Positions 3,295 to 49,641 are shown, counted from the first letter of the stretch. The stretch is 54,142 nt of DNA from Candidatus Woesearchaeota archaeon (GCA_964355745.1 CAYHEN010000003.1:1-54142), one strand, 5' to 3'. The notes: generated by a model from the sequence alone, not told the origin. Made by a program: numbers and translations.

Positions 3295-4077
3295 ATGAAT
3301 AAGAAAAAAGAGGTATTTTTGCTCGTCTTTTTAATCCTTCTTTTATTTGCAATTAATTATAGATTTCTTGACAGCAAATTCACGGAATTTTTGGAAGAAT
3401 CAGATTTCGGCATTGTTGAAAGGATTGTTGATGGCGATACTTTAATCGTAAATGGAAACAGCACAAGACTTCTCGGAATTAACACGCCTGAAAGGGGGGA
3501 GAAATATTACAACGAAGCGAAGAGTTTTCTCTCTGAAACAACATTAAACAAGACAGTTGAGCTAAAAAAGAGTAATGAAGATAAAGATAGATACAATAGG
3601 TTGCTGAGATACGTCTTTATCGATGAAAAGAACATCGACTTAGAATTAGTCAAACAAGGATTTGCTAATCTCTACTTTCCTTCTGGAAAAGATATTTATT
3701 ATAACAATTTTAGAAACGCTTGGGAAGAGTGTCTAATAAAAAATATAAATTTATGCGAGAAATCAAGTGATGAATGTGCTAAATGCGTTGAATTGAAAGA
3801 GCTAAATGTGAAAACACAAACTATTACTCTATACAATAATTGCACTTTGGACTGCAATCTTGATGAATGGAGCATCAAAGATGAAGGAAGAAAAAAATTC
3901 ATTTTTAATGATTTTATATTAAATAGCAGAAGTGAAGTCAACATAATTGTTGGAAACAAAACAAATAGAGATGATATTCTCTTCTGGAATGATGAAGAAT
4001 ATGTTTGGACATCTTCTGGAGATACTCTGTTTTTGAGAGATGAGGAAGGGGGGTTGGTGGTTTGGAGAAATTATTGA
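3295..4077 (+). CDS. Secreted/anchored thermonuclease (SNase-like) fused to a lamin-tail-like (LTD) C-terminal domain
   Basis: SNase motifs 'VDGDTLIV', 'RLLGINTPE' and 'YNRLLRYVF'. An N-terminal TM follows the internal ATG at 3286/3295. The track's 3160 start overlaps prs and is rejected. The C-terminal beta-rich domain ends 'LFLRDEEGGLVVW'. Confidence 0.75.
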   Translation: MNKKKEVFLLVFLILLLFAINYRFLDSKFTEFLEESDFGIVERIVDGDTLIVNGNSTRLLGINTPERGEKYYNEAKSFLSETTLNKTVELKKSNEDKDRYNRLLRYVFIDEKNIDLELVKQGFANLYFPSGKDIYYNNFRNAWEECLIKNINLCEKSSDECAKCVELKELNVKTQTITLYNNCTLDCNLDEWSIKDEGRKKFIFNDFILNSRSEVNIIVGNKTNRDDILFWNDEEYVWTSSGDTLFLRDEEGGLVVWRNY

Positions 4078-4078
4078 T

Positions 4079-4375
4079 TTACCATTCAACTTGCAGGCAT
4101 GAAAGCAATTCCCCATTTAATCTTTTTTGTTCAGCAAGATAATGTCTTCTACATAGATAACTCCAACCTTTTTTATTACTGTTTTTCATCATAAATGGAT
4201 AAACCTCTGCATATGCTTTATTTGTGCATTTTCCTTGAAAATCACAACAAGGAAATTCTTTTCCATCTTTCAAAAATTTAAATCTTATTATTGATTTTGG
4301 CTTGGTTGCACTGTTTTTAAGAATCTTTAATTTTCCCAGTCCATCATAGTATTTAGTTAGTATTTTCATTTTCAA
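4079..4375 (-). CDS. Small Cys/His-rich protein (possible Zn-binding), third gene of the toxin operon
   Basis: 98 aa. Contains 'CCDFQGKC...CRRH'. Its start overlaps the stop of the upstream gene by 4 nt. Confidence 0.45.
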   Translation of the reverse strand: MKMKILTKYYDGLGKLKILKNSATKPKSIIRFKFLKDGKEFPCCDFQGKCTNKAYAEVYPFMMKNSNKKGWSYLCRRHYLAEQKRLNGELLSCLQVEW

Positions 4376-4698
4376 TAATGAAATCTTCTTTCATATTCTG
4401 GATGATTAAACCATTCTAAAATTATAGAAATAATCTCAATTTTATTAGGTGTTGTTATGGTATATATCATTCTCCACCCACTAGGCAAATCATATTTCCA
4501 TAAATTATTGACTTGATATTTTTGGATATATTCTTTTGGGATTAATCTTTTAGGTATTGGTATCCCACAGAAAGCATTTTGTCTAATCTCTTCAATTGCC
4601 CGATTAATATGTTTTTTGAGTTCGTCGTCTTCATCAAGACTATTAAATTCCTCTTCAATTTTGTCATTTACAAAAATAACTTCTGATTTTTTAATCAT
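4372..4698 (-). CDS. RelE/ParE-superfamily-like toxin (tentative)
   Basis: 108 aa. Contains 'LWKYDLPSGWRMIYTI...IEIISIILEW..H..Y', which is typical of the RelE-fold C-terminal half. A small partner ORF sits immediately upstream. Confidence 0.45.
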   Translation of the reverse strand: MIKKSEVIFVNDKIEEEFNSLDEDDELKKHINRAIEEIRQNAFCGIPIPKRLIPKEYIQKYQVNNLWKYDLPSGWRMIYTITTPNKIEIISIILEWFNHPEYERRFHY

Positions 4699-4701
4699 CT
4701 T

Positions 4702-4971
4702 TTAATACCTCTTTCGCTTCATGAATTTCTTTGCTATTTCAGGACTCCAGATATAAACAAGAATGTCATTACTGCTTATTGCAATTTTGTTTATGCTTTG
4801 TAAATATTCTAAGGTTATAAGGTATGTTTGCCACATAACCTTTTTATCAAGTTTTTTCCATATTTCTGTTCGATTAAATTCCCCACTATATTTCTCAATT
4901 GTTCTTTCAATCATCATAACTGTATCAAGAGTCGGACTTCTTGCAAACGGATTTATTGTTTCATTTCTCAT
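4702..4971 (-). CDS. Putative antitoxin / small DNA-binding protein
   Basis: 89 aa. First gene of the three-gene operon, 3 nt upstream of the toxin-like ORF. A palindromic operator-like site lies directly upstream. Confidence 0.35.
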   Translation of the reverse strand: MRNETINPFARSPTLDTVMMIERTIEKYSGEFNRTEIWKKLDKKVMWQTYLITLEYLQSINKIAISSNDILVYIWSPEIAKKFMKRKRY

Positions 4972-4977
4972 TATTTC

Positions 4978-4999
4978 TTATATATCAATTGATATATAA
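4978..4999. promoter_or_regulatory. 22-bp perfect palindrome (TATA-rich) 7 nt upstream of the 4971 start; candidate promoter/operator
   Basis: 'ttatatatcaattgatatataa' equals its own reverse complement. Confidence 0.6.
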
Positions 5000-5013
5000 A
5001 TCTTTCCATCTCT

Positions 5014-5064
5014 TTGTTCCTGAGGGATGGGGAAGGGGGGTTGGTGGTGTGGCGAGCCTATTGA
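5014..5064 (+). pseudogene. Orphan copy of the last 16 codons plus stop of the SNase-LTD gene
   Basis: Reads LFLRDGEGGLVVWRAY*, compared with LFLRDEEGGLVVWRNY* at 4027-4077. 41 of 51 nt are identical by hand alignment, including an identical 17-mer. There is no upstream ORF. Confidence 0.8.
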
Positions 5065-5124
5065 ATAGCGACAAATTAGTGTATTATTAATAACGACTTT
5101 TCAAAATTCATCTATACATTAGAA

Positions 5125-5595
5125 TTATTTCTTTAATGGAATTTTATACATAAGATTAATATCAAGACGGAATGGTTGTGTGCTCTCTTGTTGCGAAGGT
5201 ATTGGCAAAATTAATCCTCCTTCTACTCCACCAAATATTCCTCTTTCTCTGCCTGTCTCAAATCCTGCTCCTATATCCAAACCAAAAAAAGGCCCGTCTA
5301 CACTTTCACGTAAAGCATACATCCAAGGAGAAATTCCAATAATTCCCCCATATCCATATATATCCACCCAATTAAATAATTTTTTCTTGTATCTTAAATC
5401 AACTCCTGAAAATATTCCAACATCTGCCTGTACTCCAAAATTATCATTCCAATCCCATACTCCTCTCAATGCAACAAGTCCATGAGATGGAGATGACAAT
5501 CCCAGAGATAATGTACTCTCTTCTGCTTTAATTTTTGGAACCGGTGCTGTAGCCAATGCAAGTCCCATTGCTAAGGCTCCAAGTGTTTTTTTCAT
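5125..5595 (-). CDS. Secreted Gly/aromatic-rich protein with small beta-barrel (OMP-like) character
   Basis: 156 aa. Signal peptide 'MKKTLGALAMGLALATAPVPKIKA'. Alternating Gly/hydrophobic/aromatic pattern. Visibly higher G+C than its neighbours. Confidence 0.5.
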   Translation of the reverse strand: MKKTLGALAMGLALATAPVPKIKAEESTLSLGLSSPSHGLVALRGVWDWNDNFGVQADVGIFSGVDLRYKKKLFNWVDIYGYGGIIGISPWMYALRESVDGPFFGLDIGAGFETGRERGIFGGVEGGLILPIPSQQESTQPFRLDINLMYKIPLKK

Positions 5596-5686
5596 ATAAG
5601 AAATATTATATACATATTTTTAAAGATTTATATGGTTTTAATTAAGAAAAAAATTCTCTAAATTTTTTTAAAAATAATATTGTTTT

Positions 5687-5733
5687 ATAAGAGATGAGAA
5701 AGACAGGCTGGTGTTATGGGCAGGGATATTAAA
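5687..5733 (+). pseudogene. Second, more decayed orphan copy of the SNase-LTD gene 3' end
   Basis: Reads IRDEKDRLVLW, compared with LRDEEGGLVVW. The frame is lost before a terminal 'tat taa'. About 17 of 24 nt match over the core by hand alignment. Confidence 0.5.
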
Positions 5734-5737
5734 AGAA

Positions 5738-6190
5738 TTAATTCATTTCCTTGCAAGTCTCTGGAGGAACTATAAACAGAGTTCCATAGCCCTTATTCAG
5801 AATCATCCTATTGACAAATAATAATTCACTTGAATAAGAATCATTAACATAAACATATCTCAATAATCTGCTGTAGTTATCTTTGTCTGTTATAGAGTGT
5901 TCAAGGATTGCCTCTTTATTTAAGATTAAAAACTCAAGAAATTCTTTAGCTTCCTGATGTCCTTCCTGAGATTTTTCAGGAGTATCCACACATAAAAGCC
6001 GTATTATCTCTCCTGAATTTATCTGAAAAGTATCTCCATCTATTACATTTATTACATAATTATCAGGAAGTTCATTGCCTTTGCCGGGATTAATACTAAA
6101 ATTATCTGAAAAAATAAATATTAATGAGATTAAAGCAATTAGAACAAGAGCAAAGAATATTGTAAACCTGATTAATTGTTTATTTTTCAT
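5738..6190 (-). CDS. Membrane-anchored thermonuclease (SNase-like), no LTD domain
   Basis: 150 aa. N-terminal TM. Motifs 'VIDGDTFQI', 'IRLLCVDTPE' and 'YSRLLRYVYV'. Confidence 0.8.
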   Translation of the reverse strand: MKNKQLIRFTIFFALVLIALISLIFIFSDNFSINPGKGNELPDNYVINVIDGDTFQINSGEIIRLLCVDTPEKSQEGHQEAKEFLEFLILNKEAILEHSITDKDNYSRLLRYVYVNDSYSSELLFVNRMILNKGYGTLFIVPPETCKEMN

Positions 6191-6199
6191 CCTAATATT

Positions 6200-6568
6200 T
6201 TATTTCTTTGCCTTTCTTCCTGTTTTTTTTCTTGAAAAAACAGATATCAGAGTATCATCCAGCTTTTCATCATAGGCAGTTTTTTTCTTTGAGTGGCTGA
6301 TTGTGCTTCTTCTTAAAATATCCTCTATCTGCTCGCCTATTGTCAACATATTCTTTTTTGCCCTTTTTTCAAGCATATTCAGAAGTTCAGTATCAAGAAA
6401 AACAGAAACTTTATTTTTGAATTTGTATTTGGGTTTTAAAAATAAAAAGACCTTTTCAATTTCCTCAGATGGCCAACCTTGTTTTAATAATGGCTCTCTA
6501 ATCTCATAATCATCAAATCCTCTTTTTCTTGCCTCTTCTATAAATTTTACAAGTTTTGGGTTGGGCAT
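6200..6568 (-). CDS. Small protein with an N-terminal helical 'GW' module and a C-terminal ribbon-helix-helix-like segment
   Basis: Start moved to the ATG at 6566-6568, directly after the stop of the upstream gene. Contains 'KFIEEARKRGFDDYEIREPLLKQGWPSEEIEKVF' and then 'VSVFLDTELLNMLEKRAKK'. Confidence 0.5.
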   Translation of the reverse strand: MPNPKLVKFIEEARKRGFDDYEIREPLLKQGWPSEEIEKVFLFLKPKYKFKNKVSVFLDTELLNMLEKRAKKNMLTIGEQIEDILRRSTISHSKKKTAYDEKLDDTLISVFSRKKTGRKAKK

Positions 6569-6569
6569 T

Positions 6570-6881
6570 TTATTTTTTACCTGGCGCTTTTTGACCCACA
6601 TAAACTTTCTGGACAGCAAAACTCTTGTAAATTCCCTCAAGGATATCTGTTCCTGCGTATCCTGCAAGAAGAGATAATCTATAATCAAAATTGAATATAA
6701 GCCCGACAAACACCCCAATAATCAGAGCAACAAGAACAGTGATTGCATAATATCCCCATAATATCCTTCTTCTTAAGGAAAGAGCTTTTAACAATCCTAT
6801 AAAACCTCGTGTTAATCCTCCGACTCCTCCCAGCAATGCAGGAAGAGCTAACTGATTCAACATCTCTGCTTCTATTACCAC
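6570..6881 (-). CDS. Small integral membrane protein
   Basis: 103 aa, about three hydrophobic helices. Tightly coupled to the downstream gene. Confidence 0.5.
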   Translation of the reverse strand: MVIEAEMLNQLALPALLGGVGGLTRGFIGLLKALSLRRRILWGYYAITVLVALIIGVFVGLIFNFDYRLSLLAGYAGTDILEGIYKSFAVQKVYVGQKAPGKK

Positions 6882-7200
6882 TTCTTTTCACCTCTTAAAA
6901 AGTTAAAGGGAAAATGTTTTTATAAATGTTTTTGAGGAATGGGCGAGAGGGATTATTGAAATTAGTTTCATCAAAACACAGTGATAACAAAGAGTATATC
7001 TTATAGGATAATTATATTTTTAAAGAAATTAGCATTAATTTTTTAATGGTGGAATTAAAGGGGATTAATTTTTCTTATTCTTTAACTATTTATTCTCATC
7101 CAAATTCTGATTTTGGTTTTCTTAATGTTCATTATTCTGCTCATTATCCTTTTAAGGATAATTTTATACAGCTGAAAGGAGGTTTAAAGAAATAAAGAAA

Positions 7201-8211
7201 ATGATGAAAAAATTAAGAGAAAAAAAGATTAATCTCTTTGGTAAAAAGGTTTCTGTGTTCGTGATTGTTATCATGAGCCTTGCTTTAGTGAGTGCTGCGT
7301 TACTAACTTATTATGGAGTTATTACTGGAATGGCGGTGGTAAGTCAATCTGTAATAGTTGAAGATAGTCCGATTACTGGAGCATGGGATACATCTCTCGT
7401 AGCAGGAACAACTGTTGTTGATTGTGATACTGATCAGGGTGAAGAGGGTAGTGGTCATTCTGTGAAGAATAATGCAGATGTTGAAGCACCAGTTCAATTT
7501 GGGACAACCTGTAGGAATGTAGCAGGAACTGATGATGGTGTGCAATATGAAAGTTATATCGATTGGGCTGATGGTATTGATAGTCCTGAATGTGATGGAA
7601 TTGTAACAGAGATTTATGGGGTTTTGAAATTGACAAGTAAAAATGTTGTGTTTGGACAATCTCCATGGACTGAAACAGCTGACATGAAAGCAACTGTTAA
7701 ATATACAATTGTTGGAGATGAGTTTTCAGCAGAAGTTATTGATTCTGAAGGGGAGTGGAATTTAGATAACTATGTTTTAGTATATTACTCTGATAATATA
7801 GATAGATTTACAAATCCAAGTGTAGCAATTAAAGTTGAATATGTTGATGAAAATTTACCATATGCAGATGATGAGAACGTAGATGAATACAACTATTGCG
7901 GAGATACATATGAGGAAGGTATATCAACAGGAGATAACTATGAACATTGCCATGGAGCAAAGATTTGGTATGTTCCAGCAAGTGCATTAACAGATAATGA
8001 AGATGGAACTTGGGCAATTAACTGGGGTCAAGCAAGTAACTTCTTATTTGAAACAGATTTAATCATGTATTCTGATGATACTGGAAATGTAATGGACCTT
8101 CTAGCAAATGGTGGAGGATTTAACTTCTGTGAAAGTAATGCCTTTGCATTGAACTTAGTTCCAGACACATACACAATAAGAACAGAAATACAACCAGTAA
8201 CAACACCATAA
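7201..8211 (+). CDS. Secreted/anchored acidic surface protein
   Basis: 336 aa. N-terminal signal-anchor ends 'SAALLTYYGVITGMAVV'. The ectodomain is Asp/Glu-rich. Confidence 0.6.
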   Translation: MMKKLREKKINLFGKKVSVFVIVIMSLALVSAALLTYYGVITGMAVVSQSVIVEDSPITGAWDTSLVAGTTVVDCDTDQGEEGSGHSVKNNADVEAPVQFGTTCRNVAGTDDGVQYESYIDWADGIDSPECDGIVTEIYGVLKLTSKNVVFGQSPWTETADMKATVKYTIVGDEFSAEVIDSEGEWNLDNYVLVYYSDNIDRFTNPSVAIKVEYVDENLPYADDENVDEYNYCGDTYEEGISTGDNYEHCHGAKIWYVPASALTDNEDGTWAINWGQASNFLFETDLIMYSDDTGNVMDLLANGGGFNFCESNAFALNLVPDTYTIRTEIQPVTTP

Positions 8212-41631: not shown

Positions 41632-43692
41632 TTATATAGAAGTATTATTTTCGACATTCGTGATTCCGGAATTTTTCTTGAACTTGATGACATTTTCCAC
41701 AAAAGTTTCCATTTTTTGCTCGTGAGAAACAATGATTAATTGCTTAACATTTAGCTGCTGTAATACGTCACGCATCTTGTCTAACTGCTGTTCGCTGAAC
41801 CCATCTGTCGGCTCATCTAAGATAACCAAATCTCTTGTTTTTATTTTGCTCAACAGAGAATTAATAACCTGATTCAAAGCAAGACGATATGCCAAAGCAA
41901 TTGCTGTTCTTTCTCCTCCTGAAAGGTATGCATAATCTAATTCATAATCCTGCTGTTCTATTACTGGTGTGAAATCATCGCTGAGCTTTACATTGAAATT
42001 ATCAGAGACAAGCATGTAAAACCATTCTGCAAATAACTTAGAGAATTCTGTTTTAAGCTTGATCATAACATTTTTTTCAATAAAAGAAATCAAAGAGACA
42101 AATTGTTTTGAAAGCCAGTTTTCAAGTTCTGTGATATATGCTAATTGCAGTTTTATTTTTTCTGTCCTCTCTATTTCTGCCTTTAATTCTTCTATTTGCA
42201 TAGAAAAAACCTCTATTTCTTTTTTTAATTCAGCTACTTTTATGTCAGCAAGTCTTTCCTGCCTTAAGGCTTCGTCCAATTCCTTTTGTTTTGTTTCAAG
42301 GATATTCACGAATCTCGTCAGGCTAAGAACAGAGGTTGTAAGTAAATTCATATGTTGTTTCAACAATTCCACATCTTTTGCAAGAGAAATATTGGATTTT
42401 TCTATCTGTTCTATTTGTGTCTGTTTTTCTTTTACGTCTTGGAGTTTCATCTTAAGAATTTTTAAATCAGTTAACTCCCCCTCACCAGAGTTTATTTCCA
42501 ATTCAATTCGAGTTATCTTGGATTCTGCTTCTTTTTTCTGCTGTTCTAATTCTCTTAATTCCTTTTTGCCCTCAACATCATCGCTATGTATCTTGTTAAG
42601 AACATTTGCCTTGTAAACTGCATCTACATTCTGCAAACAGGTAGGGCATATTTCCAAATTTGAAATCTTTTTTTCTATTTTTTGGTTCTCTTCGTTCTTT
42701 AAAAGAATGGAATTTATCCTTGAACTTATTTCCAGATTAATCTTGTTTAATTTTTCCTTTTCAATTTTATTTATGGAAATGGATTGTTCCAGTTGCTTTA
42801 ATTTATTCTCATCGAATTTTATTTTTTGAAGTTCTGCAATCTGTTTTTTTAATTGTTCTATTGTTTTAGTGTTGTTGAAAATTGTCTCGTTCTTATTCAT
42901 AATCATAATCTTTGTTTTTTCAGTTTCGCTCTGAAGTTTAATTCTTTCCTCTATCTTTTTTGAAACTTCTTCTTTTTCCACCTGAATTTTTTTTCTTATT
43001 TCTGTCTTCTCAAGAAGCTCTTTTTCGATGGAAAAAACATTCTGCTGTTTTGCTTCAAGTTCGCTTTCTTTTGAAATAAGATTAAATTTATTTTGCTCCA
43101 AGTTGGCAGTCATACCTTCTTTCAGTCTTTTTTCTTCTCTTAATTTTGTCGTTAAGATAGACACATTTTCAAGAACTCTTTTGTATTTGTCTATACCAAA
43201 GACATGTCTTAGAGTGTTAATCCTCGTTTCAGAATCTTCCAAGATTATCTGTTTCATTTCTTCCTGCGGGGTGTAAACTGTGAATGTATACAAAATATTC
43301 TGCTTCTTTGCAAACTCAGAGGGGTAATTCAAAAGCTCGAGAATTTTTCCCTTTAATTCTGTCACAGACAATTCCCTTCTCTCGTTGTTTATTATAATTG
43401 AACAATAATCTTGGGAAATTGTTTTCCCTTTTTTCAATGTTCTTTCTATTATTATCTCGTCATTATCTATTTCAAAAACCATTTTTACTTTCCCTTCTTT
43501 TTTTCCGTTTCTTAATAACGCTAAGCCCCTTTGTCCTGGCTGCAGTCCAAAAAGTGCAAATTCTATTGCAAGAAGAACACTCGTTTTCCCTGAACCTATA
43601 TCTCCTGACAGCAAAGTGGAGCCTTCTGGGAAATTTATTTCTTGATGTTCATAGCTCCTTATGTTATCGAGGATTATTTGTTTGATTTTCAT
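41632..43692 (-). CDS. rad50: Rad50 ATPase (short coiled coil)
   Basis: 686 aa. Walker A 'GDIGSGKTS', zinc hook 'CPTC', signature 'LSGGERTAIAL', Walker B 'LVILDEPT'. Confidence 0.9.
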   Translation of the reverse strand: MKIKQIILDNIRSYEHQEINFPEGSTLLSGDIGSGKTSVLLAIEFALFGLQPGQRGLALLRNGKKEGKVKMVFEIDNDEIIIERTLKKGKTISQDYCSIIINNERRELSVTELKGKILELLNYPSEFAKKQNILYTFTVYTPQEEMKQIILEDSETRINTLRHVFGIDKYKRVLENVSILTTKLREEKRLKEGMTANLEQNKFNLISKESELEAKQQNVFSIEKELLEKTEIRKKIQVEKEEVSKKIEERIKLQSETEKTKIMIMNKNETIFNNTKTIEQLKKQIAELQKIKFDENKLKQLEQSISINKIEKEKLNKINLEISSRINSILLKNEENQKIEKKISNLEICPTCLQNVDAVYKANVLNKIHSDDVEGKKELRELEQQKKEAESKITRIELEINSGEGELTDLKILKMKLQDVKEKQTQIEQIEKSNISLAKDVELLKQHMNLLTTSVLSLTRFVNILETKQKELDEALRQERLADIKVAELKKEIEVFSMQIEELKAEIERTEKIKLQLAYITELENWLSKQFVSLISFIEKNVMIKLKTEFSKLFAEWFYMLVSDNFNVKLSDDFTPVIEQQDYELDYAYLSGGERTAIALAYRLALNQVINSLLSKIKTRDLVILDEPTDGFSEQQLDKMRDVLQQLNVKQLIIVSHEQKMETFVENVIKFKKNSGITNVENNTSI

Positions 43693-43810
43693 TTTAAAGA
43701 CCTACAGTTTTTATACCCCCCGACCTCACTCGTTTTGGATTATAAATCCTCGTAAAATCACTCGCCCTCAAACGATTTTCTCTATTTGCCTCTGATGAAA
43801 ATCTTCCCAT

Positions 43811-44980
43811 TTAAAATTTCAAGATTTTTTTAGATTCTTCAAGCAGCCTATTATTGAAACTTTCTATTTTTTCTCCTTCCTGCTTGTCGATTGAAAGAGA
43901 ATTTATCAGCTGAGGAATTAGGGCATTAAAATTAAATTGATTAGGATTTTCTTCTGAATAAATTTTAATTGTCTCTTCCTCTATGTTATCTATATTCTTT
44001 ATTTCAACATTGCCCATTTTTACTTCTTTTGTCTTCAAATCATGGGTGTTTTTCAAAAGAAAATAAGCCTTTTTCCTATTAGCAGTTTCTTCTATTTGGG
44101 AGAATTTTATATCTGAATTATTTCCTGATTCTAGCTCTCCCCTTACCCTCAGAAGAATTATTTTATCTTCGATATCTCTTTTTTCTATTTCAGAAATTAT
44201 CTGCTCTGTTGCATTCACAATATTTTTCACTTCAACATTCACCAAAACAACATCTTTTATTTTCAATTCTATTTTTTGCATTGGATTTTCCTTGTCTGTA
44301 TCCACAATATAAAAACCCCCGTGCTGCAAGTCTTCCAATTCCTGAAAATTATTTGGAAATATTGGTCCAGGATAAACAAAATTCTGGTATTGGAAATCTA
44401 TGTGTAAATGTCCGAGAGCATAATAATCTGCTTTTGGAAGGCATTCAATCTCCAAAGCTTCTATCGGAAGAGTTCCTTTTGCTTTGTCTATTGTTGTGTG
44501 AAGCATAAAAATCTTGAATAGACCAGGACAGTCGTTGAATTTTATTTTTCTTAATTCTGGGATTTCCAATCCTGATTTTTTTCCAGGATAGCCATAGATA
44601 GCAACATTTCCATAAATCACTGGGTTGAGAATAATTCTTTCTTTGTTCTCCTCAAAATTTGCAACATTCTTGCAAAAGCCCGCTTTTTCCAGTACATCAA
44701 GGAAAGTTTTTCCTGAAATTGAATAATCGTGACTTCCTGCAATTATAAAACAGGGAAGTTTTGCTTCTTTTATTCTCTTGAATTCAAAAAAAGTTTCTTT
44801 TAAGATTTCTATAGAAGGATAAGCAGAATCAAACAAATCTCCTGAAATTAGAATAAAATCCAGTTTTTTCTCTATACAGACACTAATCGCCATTCTGAAA
44901 GACTGAAGATTCAAATCCTGTAATGGCTGTTGTTTCCATCCCCCTAAATGCACATCTGAGATGTGCGCAAATCTCACCAT
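43811..44980 (-). CDS. mre11: Mre11 nuclease
   Basis: The start is the ATG at 44978-44980 ('MVRFAHISDVHLG'). Contains 'ISGDLFD', 'AGSHD' and 'GHLH'. Confidence 0.85.
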   Translation of the reverse strand: MVRFAHISDVHLGGWKQQPLQDLNLQSFRMAISVCIEKKLDFILISGDLFDSAYPSIEILKETFFEFKRIKEAKLPCFIIAGSHDYSISGKTFLDVLEKAGFCKNVANFEENKERIILNPVIYGNVAIYGYPGKKSGLEIPELRKIKFNDCPGLFKIFMLHTTIDKAKGTLPIEALEIECLPKADYYALGHLHIDFQYQNFVYPGPIFPNNFQELEDLQHGGFYIVDTDKENPMQKIELKIKDVVLVNVEVKNIVNATEQIISEIEKRDIEDKIILLRVRGELESGNNSDIKFSQIEETANRKKAYFLLKNTHDLKTKEVKMGNVEIKNIDNIEEETIKIYSEENPNQFNFNALIPQLINSLSIDKQEGEKIESFNNRLLEESKKILKF

Positions 44981-45073
44981 TTTACGCTCTTGAGGTATAT
45001 ATTTATCCTTGAAAAAGTTTATAATCTTGGAATAATAGTGGGATATATAAAATTGATGGTGTTGCATAACAAG

Positions 45074-48443: not shown

Positions 48444-49070
48444 CTATTCAATTATAACTAATTCCCAAATGCACAATCTTTCGAAAAACAATTTCTCACA
48501 ACCAATTTCTTTGGCATCATAGCCAAGATTTTTGAAATCAATATCTTCTGAAAGAGAAGAAGTTATCAAAAATATTTTTCCGTCTTCTTCCAAGTGTTCT
48601 TTTGCGCTTTTCAAAAATCTTATAACAATTTCATTTCCTTTTTTTCCTGCAGTTGTATCTTTTCTTGAGCTTTTGGGTTCGCGAGCATCTTCTGGAAGAT
48701 AAGGAGGATTGAAAATTATCAAATCAAAAGACACCTGCGGTTTCTTTTGTAAGCTTCCCTTTTGATTCTGCTGGGCGATTTCTTCAATTGCCTCTGATTG
48801 AAATCGCATATCTTTAAATGCTTCAAACAAATCAGAATGGATACAGTTAAACCCCAAAACATTGCAGTGCGAGACTGATTTTTTATCTATGTCTGAAGAA
48901 AAAATATTTTCATTTTTTATTCCTGAATTCAAAGCTGTTTGCAGATGAATCCCGCTTCCTGCTCCTATCTCTAAAAATTTCAAATCAGGATTTTTTTCAA
49001 TCAAATTTGGAACTTGTTCTCTTAAAATTCTTGACATTAAATAAGAATCCTCTGAAGCAGTGTAAACCAT
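48444..49070 (-). CDS. HemK-related (archaeal Mtq2/PrmC-like) SAM-dependent methyltransferase
   Basis: The start is the ATG at 49070 ('MVYTASEDSYLM'). Contains 'EIGAGSG' and 'IFNPPYLP'. Confidence 0.75.
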   Translation of the reverse strand: MVYTASEDSYLMSRILREQVPNLIEKNPDLKFLEIGAGSGIHLQTALNSGIKNENIFSSDIDKKSVSHCNVLGFNCIHSDLFEAFKDMRFQSEAIEEIAQQNQKGSLQKKPQVSFDLIIFNPPYLPEDAREPKSSRKDTTAGKKGNEIVIRFLKSAKEHLEEDGKIFLITSSLSEDIDFKNLGYDAKEIGCEKLFFERLCIWELVIIE

Positions 49071-49077
49071 TTTATTA

Positions 49078-49641
49078 TTAACTAAAAAACATGCCGAAAA
49101 AATCAATTAATTGCTCTCTGAACACAAAAATAACTCCCAACAAACCTATAAGCAAAATTAACAGGAAAACCAATACAAAGATTATTCCTCTTTCTTTTGT
49201 ATCTCTTTTTTCTTTTGAACCAGGCTGTTCATAACTGGAAACTTTCTGAATTGGGAGAGGTTTGCTTATTGGAATTTGCATTGGTTGTTCTTGAAATTGT
49301 TGGTTTAATCTTTGCAATTCTAATCTCTGCGCTACCAATGGTTGAGGTTGCTGGGGAATGGACCTAGCATATGGATGCAATCCTGGAAAAGACTTCACTG
49401 TTATTGGTGTTGTAAGCACTTGCGGAGCTTGTTTTATTTCAGCACTTTTAGGAACACTTTTTACTGGTGGCTGCAACTGACTTTCACTACTAAACTCCAT
49501 CAAACTTCTCGCAGCTTCTTCAATTTCTTCTTTTTTATACCCAGAATTATAAAGAGCCATCATTGCCCTTTGCAGAGATTGTCCTCTTTCTAAAGCAGAT
49601 TTTAATCCCCCAACAATTTCTTCATTAACCATATTATACAA
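49078..49641 (-). CDS. C-terminally TM-anchored protein with an N-terminal helical module and a Gln/Pro-rich linker
   Basis: 187 aa. Contains 'LKSALERGQSLQRAMMALYNSGYKKEEIEEAARSL' and a C-terminal TM. Confidence 0.5.
   Translation of the reverse strand: MYNMVNEEIVGGLKSALERGQSLQRAMMALYNSGYKKEEIEEAARSLMEFSSESQLQPPVKSVPKSAEIKQAPQVLTTPITVKSFPGLHPYARSIPQQPQPLVAQRLELQRLNQQFQEQPMQIPISKPLPIQKVSSYEQPGSKEKRDTKERGIIFVLVFLLILLIGLLGVIFVFREQLIDFFGMFFS

Follow-up and report, generated by a model that had tools for sequence, protein, structure and literature searches.

Small, self-contained cassettes of the toxin–antitoxin (TA) or defence type have repeatedly docked at the stop codon of a gene for a secreted nuclease in a stretch of archaeal DNA. 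The gene, whose product joins a staphylococcal nuclease domain to a lamin-tail domain (SNase-LTD), lies at 3295–4077 on the plus strand (alternative start 3286) of a 54,142-nt sequence listed under Candidatus Woesearchaeota archaeon (GCA_964355745.1 CAYHEN010000003.1:1-54142), the whole of which is called the window here. Downstream of it stand two inserts, islet 1 (~0.94 kb) between the first and second copies of the gene's 3' end, and islet 2 (~0.62 kb) between the second and third. Insertion has occurred repeatedly at one site defined to the nucleotide, the cassettes are minimal, the gene ends are duplicated, and the duplicates diverge in the manner of coding sequence. From these footprints we favour, with moderate confidence, a homology-anchored recombination that supplies a replacement gene end and is repeated serially. 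Each arrival would place a cassette and an extra copy of the gene's last 17–53 nt between the gene and its old downstream DNA; the intact end would stay with the gene, and the previous end would be moved distally, untranslated and decaying. The window would then record two arrivals, possibly three, with the newest (YoeB/RelE-like) proximal and the older one (a beta-barrel gene) distal.

Gene-end copies at the nuclease stop codon

Copy 1 is the working end of the nuclease gene, comprising its last 17 codons (4027–4077, +; LFLRDEEGGLVVWRNY, stop TGA). Copy 2, a displaced former end, occupies 5014–5064 on the same strand (LFLRDGEGGLVVWRAY, stop TGA) and is non-coding. Copy 3 (5684–5733, +), an older displaced end, reads (C)FIRDEKDRLVLWAG and is then frameshifted by 1 nt before TAT TAA, a 1-nt deletion being required to arrive at these codons. 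Copies 1 and 2 are identical at 41 of 51 nt (10 differences); a repeat search paired 4025–4077 with 5012–5064 over 53 nt at 81%, and returned a 36-nt family consisting of 4030–4065 (the reference), 5017–5052 (86%) and 5684–5719 (75%). The exact 17-mer GAAGGGGGGTTGGTGGT occurs in the window at 4045 and 5032 only, even with three mismatches allowed, and none of 100 shuffles produced two matches. In-frame stops are found a few codons 5' of both extra copies (8 codons upstream for copy 2), so neither has an open reading frame (ORF) leading into it. A first-pass annotation, made by a model from the sequence alone, had described three copies of one gene end, the loss of frame in the third before TAT TAA, and the lack of an ORF upstream of either extra copy, and all of this holds on formal alignment.

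That annotation had also allowed that a proper statistical alignment might show one or both extra copies not to be significantly similar, and both are significant. Copy 3 matches copy 1 at 27 of 36 nt, in register, and at a threshold of at least 24/36 to the gene end the whole window, on both strands, contains the three copies only. Control scans, for which about 146 related loci were each searched with their own gene end (reverse strand, and upstream on both strands), gave 25/36 at best (n=434). An nhmmer profile built from 125 distinct orthologous gene ends detected copy 3 (E=0.0056) and copy 2 (E=0.016), and elsewhere across all loci it matched solely further downstream, same-strand copies. 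Two independent assemblies of the same population from other samples, L001 and L002, have the same layout with both islets, so misassembly is not the reason for the arrangement in the window.

It is scarcely credible that the extra copies arose by the ordinary decay of tandem paralogues of the nuclease-LTD gene or by chance. The C-termini of LTD proteins share a motif, so that paralogue remnants would look alike, and full-length tandem paralogues in relatives had been named beforehand as a finding that would speak for decay; a second nuclease was present in none of 168 related loci. Furthermore, the remnants begin sharply beside the promoter of an unrelated, opposite-strand cassette, at the same codon across lineages. 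Chance is excluded by the shuffles, control scans, nhmmer profile and whole-window scan.

A candidate fourth copy lies at 6929–6964 (+; FLRNGREGLLKL), matching at 22 of 36 nt. It falls in the intergenic gap that ends a third minus-strand block (5738–6881), where a further copy would be expected, and it is one of three positions, besides the confirmed copies, that reach 22/36 in 108 kb (both strands). A post-hoc estimate gives p ~0.01, and the nhmmer gene-end profile did not detect it; the interpretation of this segment as a very decayed copy that closes the block is suggestive only.

Comparison was extended to about 170 related loci, for which 160 further loci with a nuclease orthologue were fetched; all sequences compared are metagenome assemblies. 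In at least five other lineages the orthologous nuclease stop shows the same design: a minus-strand cassette comes next after the gene end, and beyond it the end of that particular genome's nuclease gene appears a second time. Cargo varies from lineage to lineage: a YoeB-like toxin and antitoxin under the same promoter as in the window (L003, distal copy 51 nt), a small ORF with a nucleotidyltransferase (NTase; L121, ~50 nt), HepT with MNT (L037, ~25 nt), an NYN nuclease (L054, ~27 nt), and a YoeB-like pair (L250, 17 nt, exact). This is the comparative pattern, one architecture with varying cargo, that the earlier reading of the window predicted. YoeB-like cassettes also occur at the nuclease stop in L126, L153 (two in tandem), L159, L096, L092 and L091. 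A minus-strand ORF abuts the nuclease stop in 30 of 115 distinct loci, and these ORFs belong to 26 families, which marks the downstream flank as a hypervariable hot spot. In L005, a conserved surface-protein and pilus cluster follows directly after the nuclease.

An empty site can be seen for one of these inserts. The nuclease of L129 is the closest to that of L037 (68% amino-acid identity), and its stop runs directly into the DNA that is found after the distal copy in L037, at ~90% identity that includes the intergenic spacer. L129 is thus the empty-site allele relative to L037, with the repeat in single copy, and the insert in L037 comprises the cassette plus one gene-end copy. The identities to the left (~75%) and right (~90%) of the site were considered as a sign of a recombination break between the two loci, an idea that was dropped because the nuclease outpaces the right-flank gene in every pair compared. 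Alleles lacking islets, which the first-pass annotation had suggested seeking, were therefore found for L037 but not for the window strain itself, for which no empty-site allele turned up, L001 and L002 being occupied. L094 shares the downstream flank of L250 and has other inserts; an 8-nt remnant there, AATTATTA, is too short to call.

Divergence of the copies and possible routes of insertion

The ways in which the copies differ are informative about their past. In the pairs from the window, L003 and L121, which were picked purely by self-similarity, there are 29 nucleotide differences and 8 amino-acid differences, just one of the latter at a conserved codon, and that one is toward the family consensus. 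First-position synonymous changes in Leu and Arg codons are seen, and there are no indels, frameshifts or internal stops; across all pairs, one stop is often exchanged for another (TAG/TGA, TAG/TAA, TAA/TGA). Random mutation reproduced the pattern in none of 50,000 simulated trials (P<2e-5), and a model in which the distal copy drifts neutrally after duplication, with synonymous change in the gene, reproduced it in at most 1 of 5,000 (P<=2e-4). Changes that are mostly synonymous, conservative and stop-to-stop point to fossil functional ends, rather than to chance, paralogue debris or drifted target duplications. They favour the earlier proposal of a replacement end, since the copies differ as two functional alleles would, and support the view that each insertion at the stop codon in turn left a displaced end behind, so that the working end is proximal and the age of the others increases with distance from the gene.

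Comparison of the window with L003 leads in the same direction. PRPP (phosphoribosyl pyrophosphate) synthase is 88% identical between the two, the cassette proteins 42–51%, and the promoter-side end of the cassette 37 of 42 nt. The copies within each genome match at 41 and 44 of 51 nt, as against 34–39 of 51 for orthologous copies, and in both genomes one and the same codon marks the junction between promoter and distal copy. Within-genome likeness combined with a fixed junction is the pattern to be expected if functional gene ends had renewed the copy again and again. Identical tracts occupy the centre of the repeat in the window (17 nt), both its ends in L003 and its left part in L121, and this variation in position indicates that there is no common crossover core; by estimate, 51 positions with 10 mismatches would contain a run of 17 matches by chance with a probability of ~0.1.

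The cassette family is not restricted to the nuclease gene. Eight further cassette loci were examined with an unbiased search for direct repeats around the cassette, and three had flanking repeats, each ending at the stop codon of the neighbouring host gene. In L250 this gene is the nuclease (repeat 17 nt); in L249 it is a DEAD-box-type helicase (Helicase_C 1.5e-27) convergent with the cassette (~47 nt); and in L258 it is PCMT (1e-56), co-directional with the cassette (41 nt, stops TAG and TAA). The flanking copies in these young cases are nearly identical, those of L249 differing by AGG>CGG, AAT>AAC, AGG>AGC and TAA>TAG. The L258 insert measures 635 nt, exactly from the BRE/TATA element (BRE, transcription factor B recognition element) to the toxin stop. 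The promoter-side terminus, ..ATAGAAAG-TTATATATCAATTGATAT, is common to L003, L249, L250 and L258 and is joined to different host-gene ends, and the toxin-side end varies by lineage, a 98-aa gene being full, truncated or absent.

Duplicated gene ends were also found around other cargo. In L086 (1216–2636), a tract of ~50–60 nt, made up of the last part of an acylphosphatase gene and ~20 nt of 3' flank, occurs in two near-exact copies, which enclose a convergent pair of winged helix-turn-helix (wHTH)-MNT and HEPN-like genes. In L134 (15080–17039), a 974-aa type IIG-like restriction–modification (RM) gene has its last ~75 codons (~230 nt) duplicated as a separate 78-aa ORF, 1.5 kb downstream of the RM gene and with three small genes between. 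A scan of 1714 ORF ends for copies of their own end downstream on the same strand (at least 32/45 nt) gave 14, some of which are tandem paralogues, compared with 3 in controls.

Under the favoured, homology-anchored reading, the incoming DNA would carry a gene-end copy beside the cassette, in the form of a circle or of a linear fragment from a cassette-bearing genome. Recombination would occur inside the short coding segment, by Campbell-type or 'overlapping-arm' integration, and could be carried out by host machinery (RadA; Mre11–Rad50, whose genes are present in the window at 41632–45067) or by a recombinase acting in trans. The C-terminus of the nuclease, LFLRD..G.LVLW..Y followed by the stop, is almost invariant across orthologues, and the gene-end segment is conserved because the protein is constrained. 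The flanking copies would be two functional alleles, and could mediate excision, exchange of cargo and onward transfer. Such a route would explain the allele-like differences, the differing stops, the conserved junction, the refreshing of the distal copy, and the order of decay (86%, 75%, perhaps 61%).

Several points weigh against it. A distal gene-end copy was sought beyond the cassettes of L126, L153 and L159, and none was detectable in these loci. The same cassette family (toxins 73–82% identical to that of the window) is flanked by helicase ends in L249 and by PCMT ends, in the opposite relative orientation, in L258, so a replacement end carried along with the cassette cannot belong to it permanently; capture of new gene ends is required, and an insertion that duplicates its target explains this more simply. 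The three youngest repeats end at or within the stop codon, and their copies differ in its third base. Anchoring by homology fits this boundary only if the donor cassette already abutted a stop, and on its own it leaves the exact abutment at stop codons unexplained. Finally, no circular form, donor molecule or excision junction was seen.

The main rival is that a transposon-like unit with defined ends is inserted into a staggered break over the last 17–53 nt of the gene, and that fill-in synthesis then yields a long target duplication of variable length whose copies are identical at birth. It would account well for a single cassette family whose repeats are taken from three host genes (nuclease, helicase and PCMT), for repeat lengths that vary (17, 41, ~47 and 51 nt) in both orientations, for a conserved promoter-side terminus (..ATAGAAAG-TATA..) and for young repeats that are nearly exact. 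The L086 repeat, which extends past the stop, and the long duplication at the L134 RM gene also speak for it, and Furuta et al. 2010 (PMC2853133) described this pattern for RM systems. We nevertheless regard it as rather unlikely. The older pairs diverge like coding sequences, which the simulations of duplication and distal drift practically never reproduced, and to reconcile this with duplication in place, foreign alleles would have had to take over the in-gene copy at a later time. The boundary is at the stop codon in all eight nuclease, helicase and PCMT cases, though selection would tolerate any position beyond it, and the cassette has no fixed end on the toxin side.

There is also a slim chance that a dedicated, hitherto undescribed mechanism targets host stop codons, acting on several genes and in either orientation and producing a copy of the terminal 17–53 nt of codons. 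Such a mechanism would amount to an archaeal equivalent of integron cassettes that does without an integrase and uses the end of a host gene as the 'attachment site'. RelE-type toxins are described, in a passage of PMC2680264 that cites Pedersen 2003, as cutting ribosome-bound mRNA between nucleotides 2 and 3 of stop codons in the A site. The boundary of the repeat could lie at TA| of the host stop codon in each of the three youngest insertions, so an RNA end made by the toxin could help to define the junction. An RNA-linked, toxin-dependent step of this sort has a low probability, and for L258 there is a simpler account, in which the stop comes from the conserved ATAG terminus of the cassette.

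Comparison with known systems

Integration into the 3' ends of tRNA or protein genes, with reconstitution of the end, is classical, as in phage 21 and e14, which use icd, and in archaeal integrative elements. As in E. coli icd, the target gene here is intact and a displaced copy of its 3' end is found beyond the insert; an empty site exists as well (L129 versus L037). As with 3'-end prophages, the copies differ mainly silently and one site can be occupied serially or in nested fashion. The inserts could, on this analogy, be remnants of larger integrase-bearing elements or proviruses (attL/attR), whittled down to an addictive TA module; TA modules resist loss, and the 17-nt identical tract between diverged arms in the window resembles an att core. 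This origin is improbable. Pfam searches detected no recombinase domain in the 31 window ORFs of at least 200 aa or in the islet genes, in agreement with the first-pass annotation, which had noted that an integrase was lacking. None was present in the Pfam gene lists around L003, L249, L250 and L258 either, the flanks of L121, L037 and L054 not having been scanned systematically. The identical tracts of L003 and L121 are elsewhere in the repeat, several different host genes are used, and the inserts are uniformly minimal, reaching from promoter to stop (635 nt in L258), which random decay would not bring about time after time. The annotation's analogy with integrase-driven, tRNA-type insertion consequently does not hold, there being no recombinase in the 31 ORFs, no common core, and use of helicase and PCMT stops as well. 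Where 3'-end prophages are concerned, the present inserts differ in being single operons of 0.6–1 kb with no integrase found and no conserved crossover core, and in that one cassette family uses several host genes in a DPANN host. Viral contigs were scanned for an episomal or attP form (with the operator palindrome and nuclease relatives), and none was found; the matches consisted of one chance AT-rich match in an unrelated phage (L168) and otherwise only distant phage SNases.

Insertion of RM gene complexes with long target duplications was reportedly described by Nobusato in 2000 (and also by Kobayashi). The criteria of Furuta et al. 2010 were direct repeats of more than 30 bp, an insert of less than 20 kb and no mobility genes; the repeats were variable in length, single-copy in empty-site genomes and in some cases overlapped gene 3' ends, and a life cycle of invading, amplifying and release via the repeats was proposed, no archaeal case having passed their screen (PMC2853133). 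The likeness to the window lies in the selfish, addiction-type cargo, in the lack of a linked mobility gene and in 51–53-nt repeats around inserts of ~0.94 and ~0.62 kb. Unlike those systems, the cargo here is not RM but YoeB/RelE-like TA, HepT–MNT, NYN, NTase and a beta-barrel protein, the repeat boundary is at the stop codon, and the coding-type divergence of older repeats argues against duplication in place.

An integron-like cassette array, in which the repeated gene end would act as attC/attI, is very improbable, for all that small cassettes are split by a recurring element with the newest beside the 'platform'. TA cassettes are typical integron cargo, and archaeal integrons, likewise arrays of small TA- and defence-rich cassettes, have been reported in metagenome-assembled genomes of Nanoarchaeota (Ghaly et al. 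2022, PMC9668308). In the window, however, no IntI was found among the 31 ORFs of at least 200 aa, the repeats form no hairpins or attC structure (fold z-scores −1.6 to +1.0), and there are no R''/R' core pairs (RYYYAAC...GTTRRRY) in 3900–7300. The cassettes have their own promoters, and the repeat copies host coding sequence and changes with the host gene.

Minimal bacterial 'TA islets' consist of a TA system only, with no mobile-element genes, and their spread has been proposed to occur via recombination with flanking core genes, no gene-end duplication being reported (Mol Biol Evol 2026, PMC13617665). Unlike in these, the homology arm in the present case is apparently as short as the last 17–53 nt of one gene, and is itself duplicated. 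It has long been a question how TA and other small defence modules move when they carry no mobility genes, and in most chromosomal TA islets there are no scars to go by. At the present loci scars survive, and they follow rules: cassettes run from promoter to stop, are docked at a host stop codon, are flanked by copies of 17–53 nt and are stacked by order of arrival, and the displaced ends still resemble once-functional alleles. The mechanism thereby becomes directly testable in population metagenomes and by simple recombination assays. A hypervariable hot spot is identified in otherwise streamlined DPANN genomes, and insertion of the 'long target duplication / replacement-end' kind is extended to Archaea and to TA cargo.

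Cassette genes, host and neighbouring loci

The first-pass annotation had recognised a RelE-like, three-gene minus-strand cassette with a palindromic promoter in islet 1, and gene order, fold model and palindrome all agree with it. The predicted toxin (4372–4698, −; 108 aa) gave weak sequence matches (Pfam YoeB 1.9e-4 and ParE 3.9e-3, TIGR YoeB 3.3e-3, PDB YoeB 0.04). Its own scores are under the curated cut-offs, and the homologue in L258 is above that of Pfam ParE (27.1 vs 23 bits). Its AlphaFold2 (AF2) model, with a predicted local distance difference test score (pLDDT) of 81.6, resembles HigB2, PfiT and ParE (top-ten probability 0.93–1.0, TM ~0.5), and a RelE/ParE fold (YoeB-like within that superfamily) is accordingly indicated by the model. 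There are 1206 homologues, with the JGI label Txe/YoeB. The toxin of L001 was considered as a strain variant (102 vs 108 aa), and the difference proved to be an N-filled scaffold gap.

An antitoxin-like gene of 89 aa (4702–4971, −) ends 3 nt upstream of the toxin gene, and this pairing is kept in all relatives; its N-terminus is conserved, and no family or structural relative could be detected by profile and structure searches. The promoter-side end of the islet (4972–5013, −) contains a perfect 18-nt palindrome, ATATATCAATTGATATAT (4980–4997), which overlaps the TATA region and is likely to be the operator, and a BRE/TATA-like element, GAAAGATTTATATAT, on the minus strand at 4992–5006, copy 2 beginning 7 nt beyond. 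Judged from its sequence, islet 1 has the layout of a type II TA system, with a small upstream partner in one operon and a palindromic operator in the promoter. The third gene, a Cys-rich ORF of 98 aa (4079–4375, −), has its stop 1 nt from that of the nuclease and gave no match in Pfam or other family-profile scans; L126, L091 and L092 have homologues at the equivalent position, and L249 retains a truncated remnant.

Islet 2 carries a gene (5125–5595, −) for a 156-aa signal-peptide protein, which is predicted to form an eight-stranded OmpX/OmpA-like beta-barrel. The AF2 model (pLDDT 72.5, 8 strands) matched Ail, OmpX, OmpA and the N-terminal domain of OprF in Foldseek with a probability of 1.0, in keeping with the signal-peptide, barrel-like protein that had been proposed. 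The marked GC richness that had been attributed to the gene did not stand up: its 37.2% GC compares with a window mean of 33.5% (standard deviation 3.3%), and 14% of same-size windows are equally GC-rich, so composition is no evidence for a foreign origin and was dropped as a mark of it. Only 8 homologues were found, and in L149 and L265 they occupy other positions of the same neighbourhood; a duplicated PRPP-synthase end was sought beside the homologue in L265 and none was found. A transmembrane beta-barrel would be odd in an archaeon without an outer membrane.

Immediately beyond copy 3, on the strand opposite to the SNase-LTD gene, a gene at 5738–6190 (−) encodes a shorter secreted nuclease (150 aa, SNase only), the top PADLOC match of which is a model described as 'SNc+LTD'. 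It could itself be the cargo of another islet. The 172-aa and 103-aa genes of the block 5738–6881 have homologues directly after the nuclease in L034.

The host is assigned to the Pacearchaeota (DPANN) from the source names of the nuclease's 957 homologues, which are those of Pacearchaeota/Nanoarchaeia thermonucleases; the archaeal housekeeping genes of the window (RtcB, proteasome subunits, FttA, TrmB, type IV pilus ATPases) agree. By Pfam (SNase 1.2e-15, LTD 1.8e-09) the host-gene product is a secreted, signal-anchored nuclease, and the gene is conserved and single-copy in Pacearchaeota, with PRPP synthase as its usual neighbour. The gene in the window (3295–4077) is mosaic-like, its 5' and 3' thirds being nearest to L003 (79–83% at the nucleotide level) and its central third only 57–66% identical to L003 and nearest to other lineages (L005 type); this mosaic structure is a further point in favour of the homology-anchored reading.

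Tandem arrangements were seen in other loci. In L153 (10793–13480), two YoeB-like cassettes lie downstream of one nuclease gene, the first abutting its stop, and the second (~+2.1 kb) has the same next gene downstream as the L126 cassette; a match to the end of the isoleucyl-tRNA synthetase gene (IleRS) at +1650 is inside the arginyl-tRNA synthetase gene (ArgRS), on the other strand, and was taken as chance. Downstream of the helicase gene in L249 (761–3439) there are tandem TA cassettes, namely a YoeB-like pair, MNT with HepT, and another 108-aa ORF, the repeats having been examined at the first junction only. Tandem gene-end repeats in L067 (~1700–1900, a 98-aa ORF, period 63 nt) and L082 (~1540–1700, ArgRS, period 77 nt), both on contigs with SPAdes-style names, may be assembly artefacts and were not used. 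Elsewhere in the window, at 48444–49641 (−), a 220-aa ORF with an Eco57I-type methylase domain is followed on the same strand by a 187-aa ORF, and the pair may be a split or decayed RM gene.

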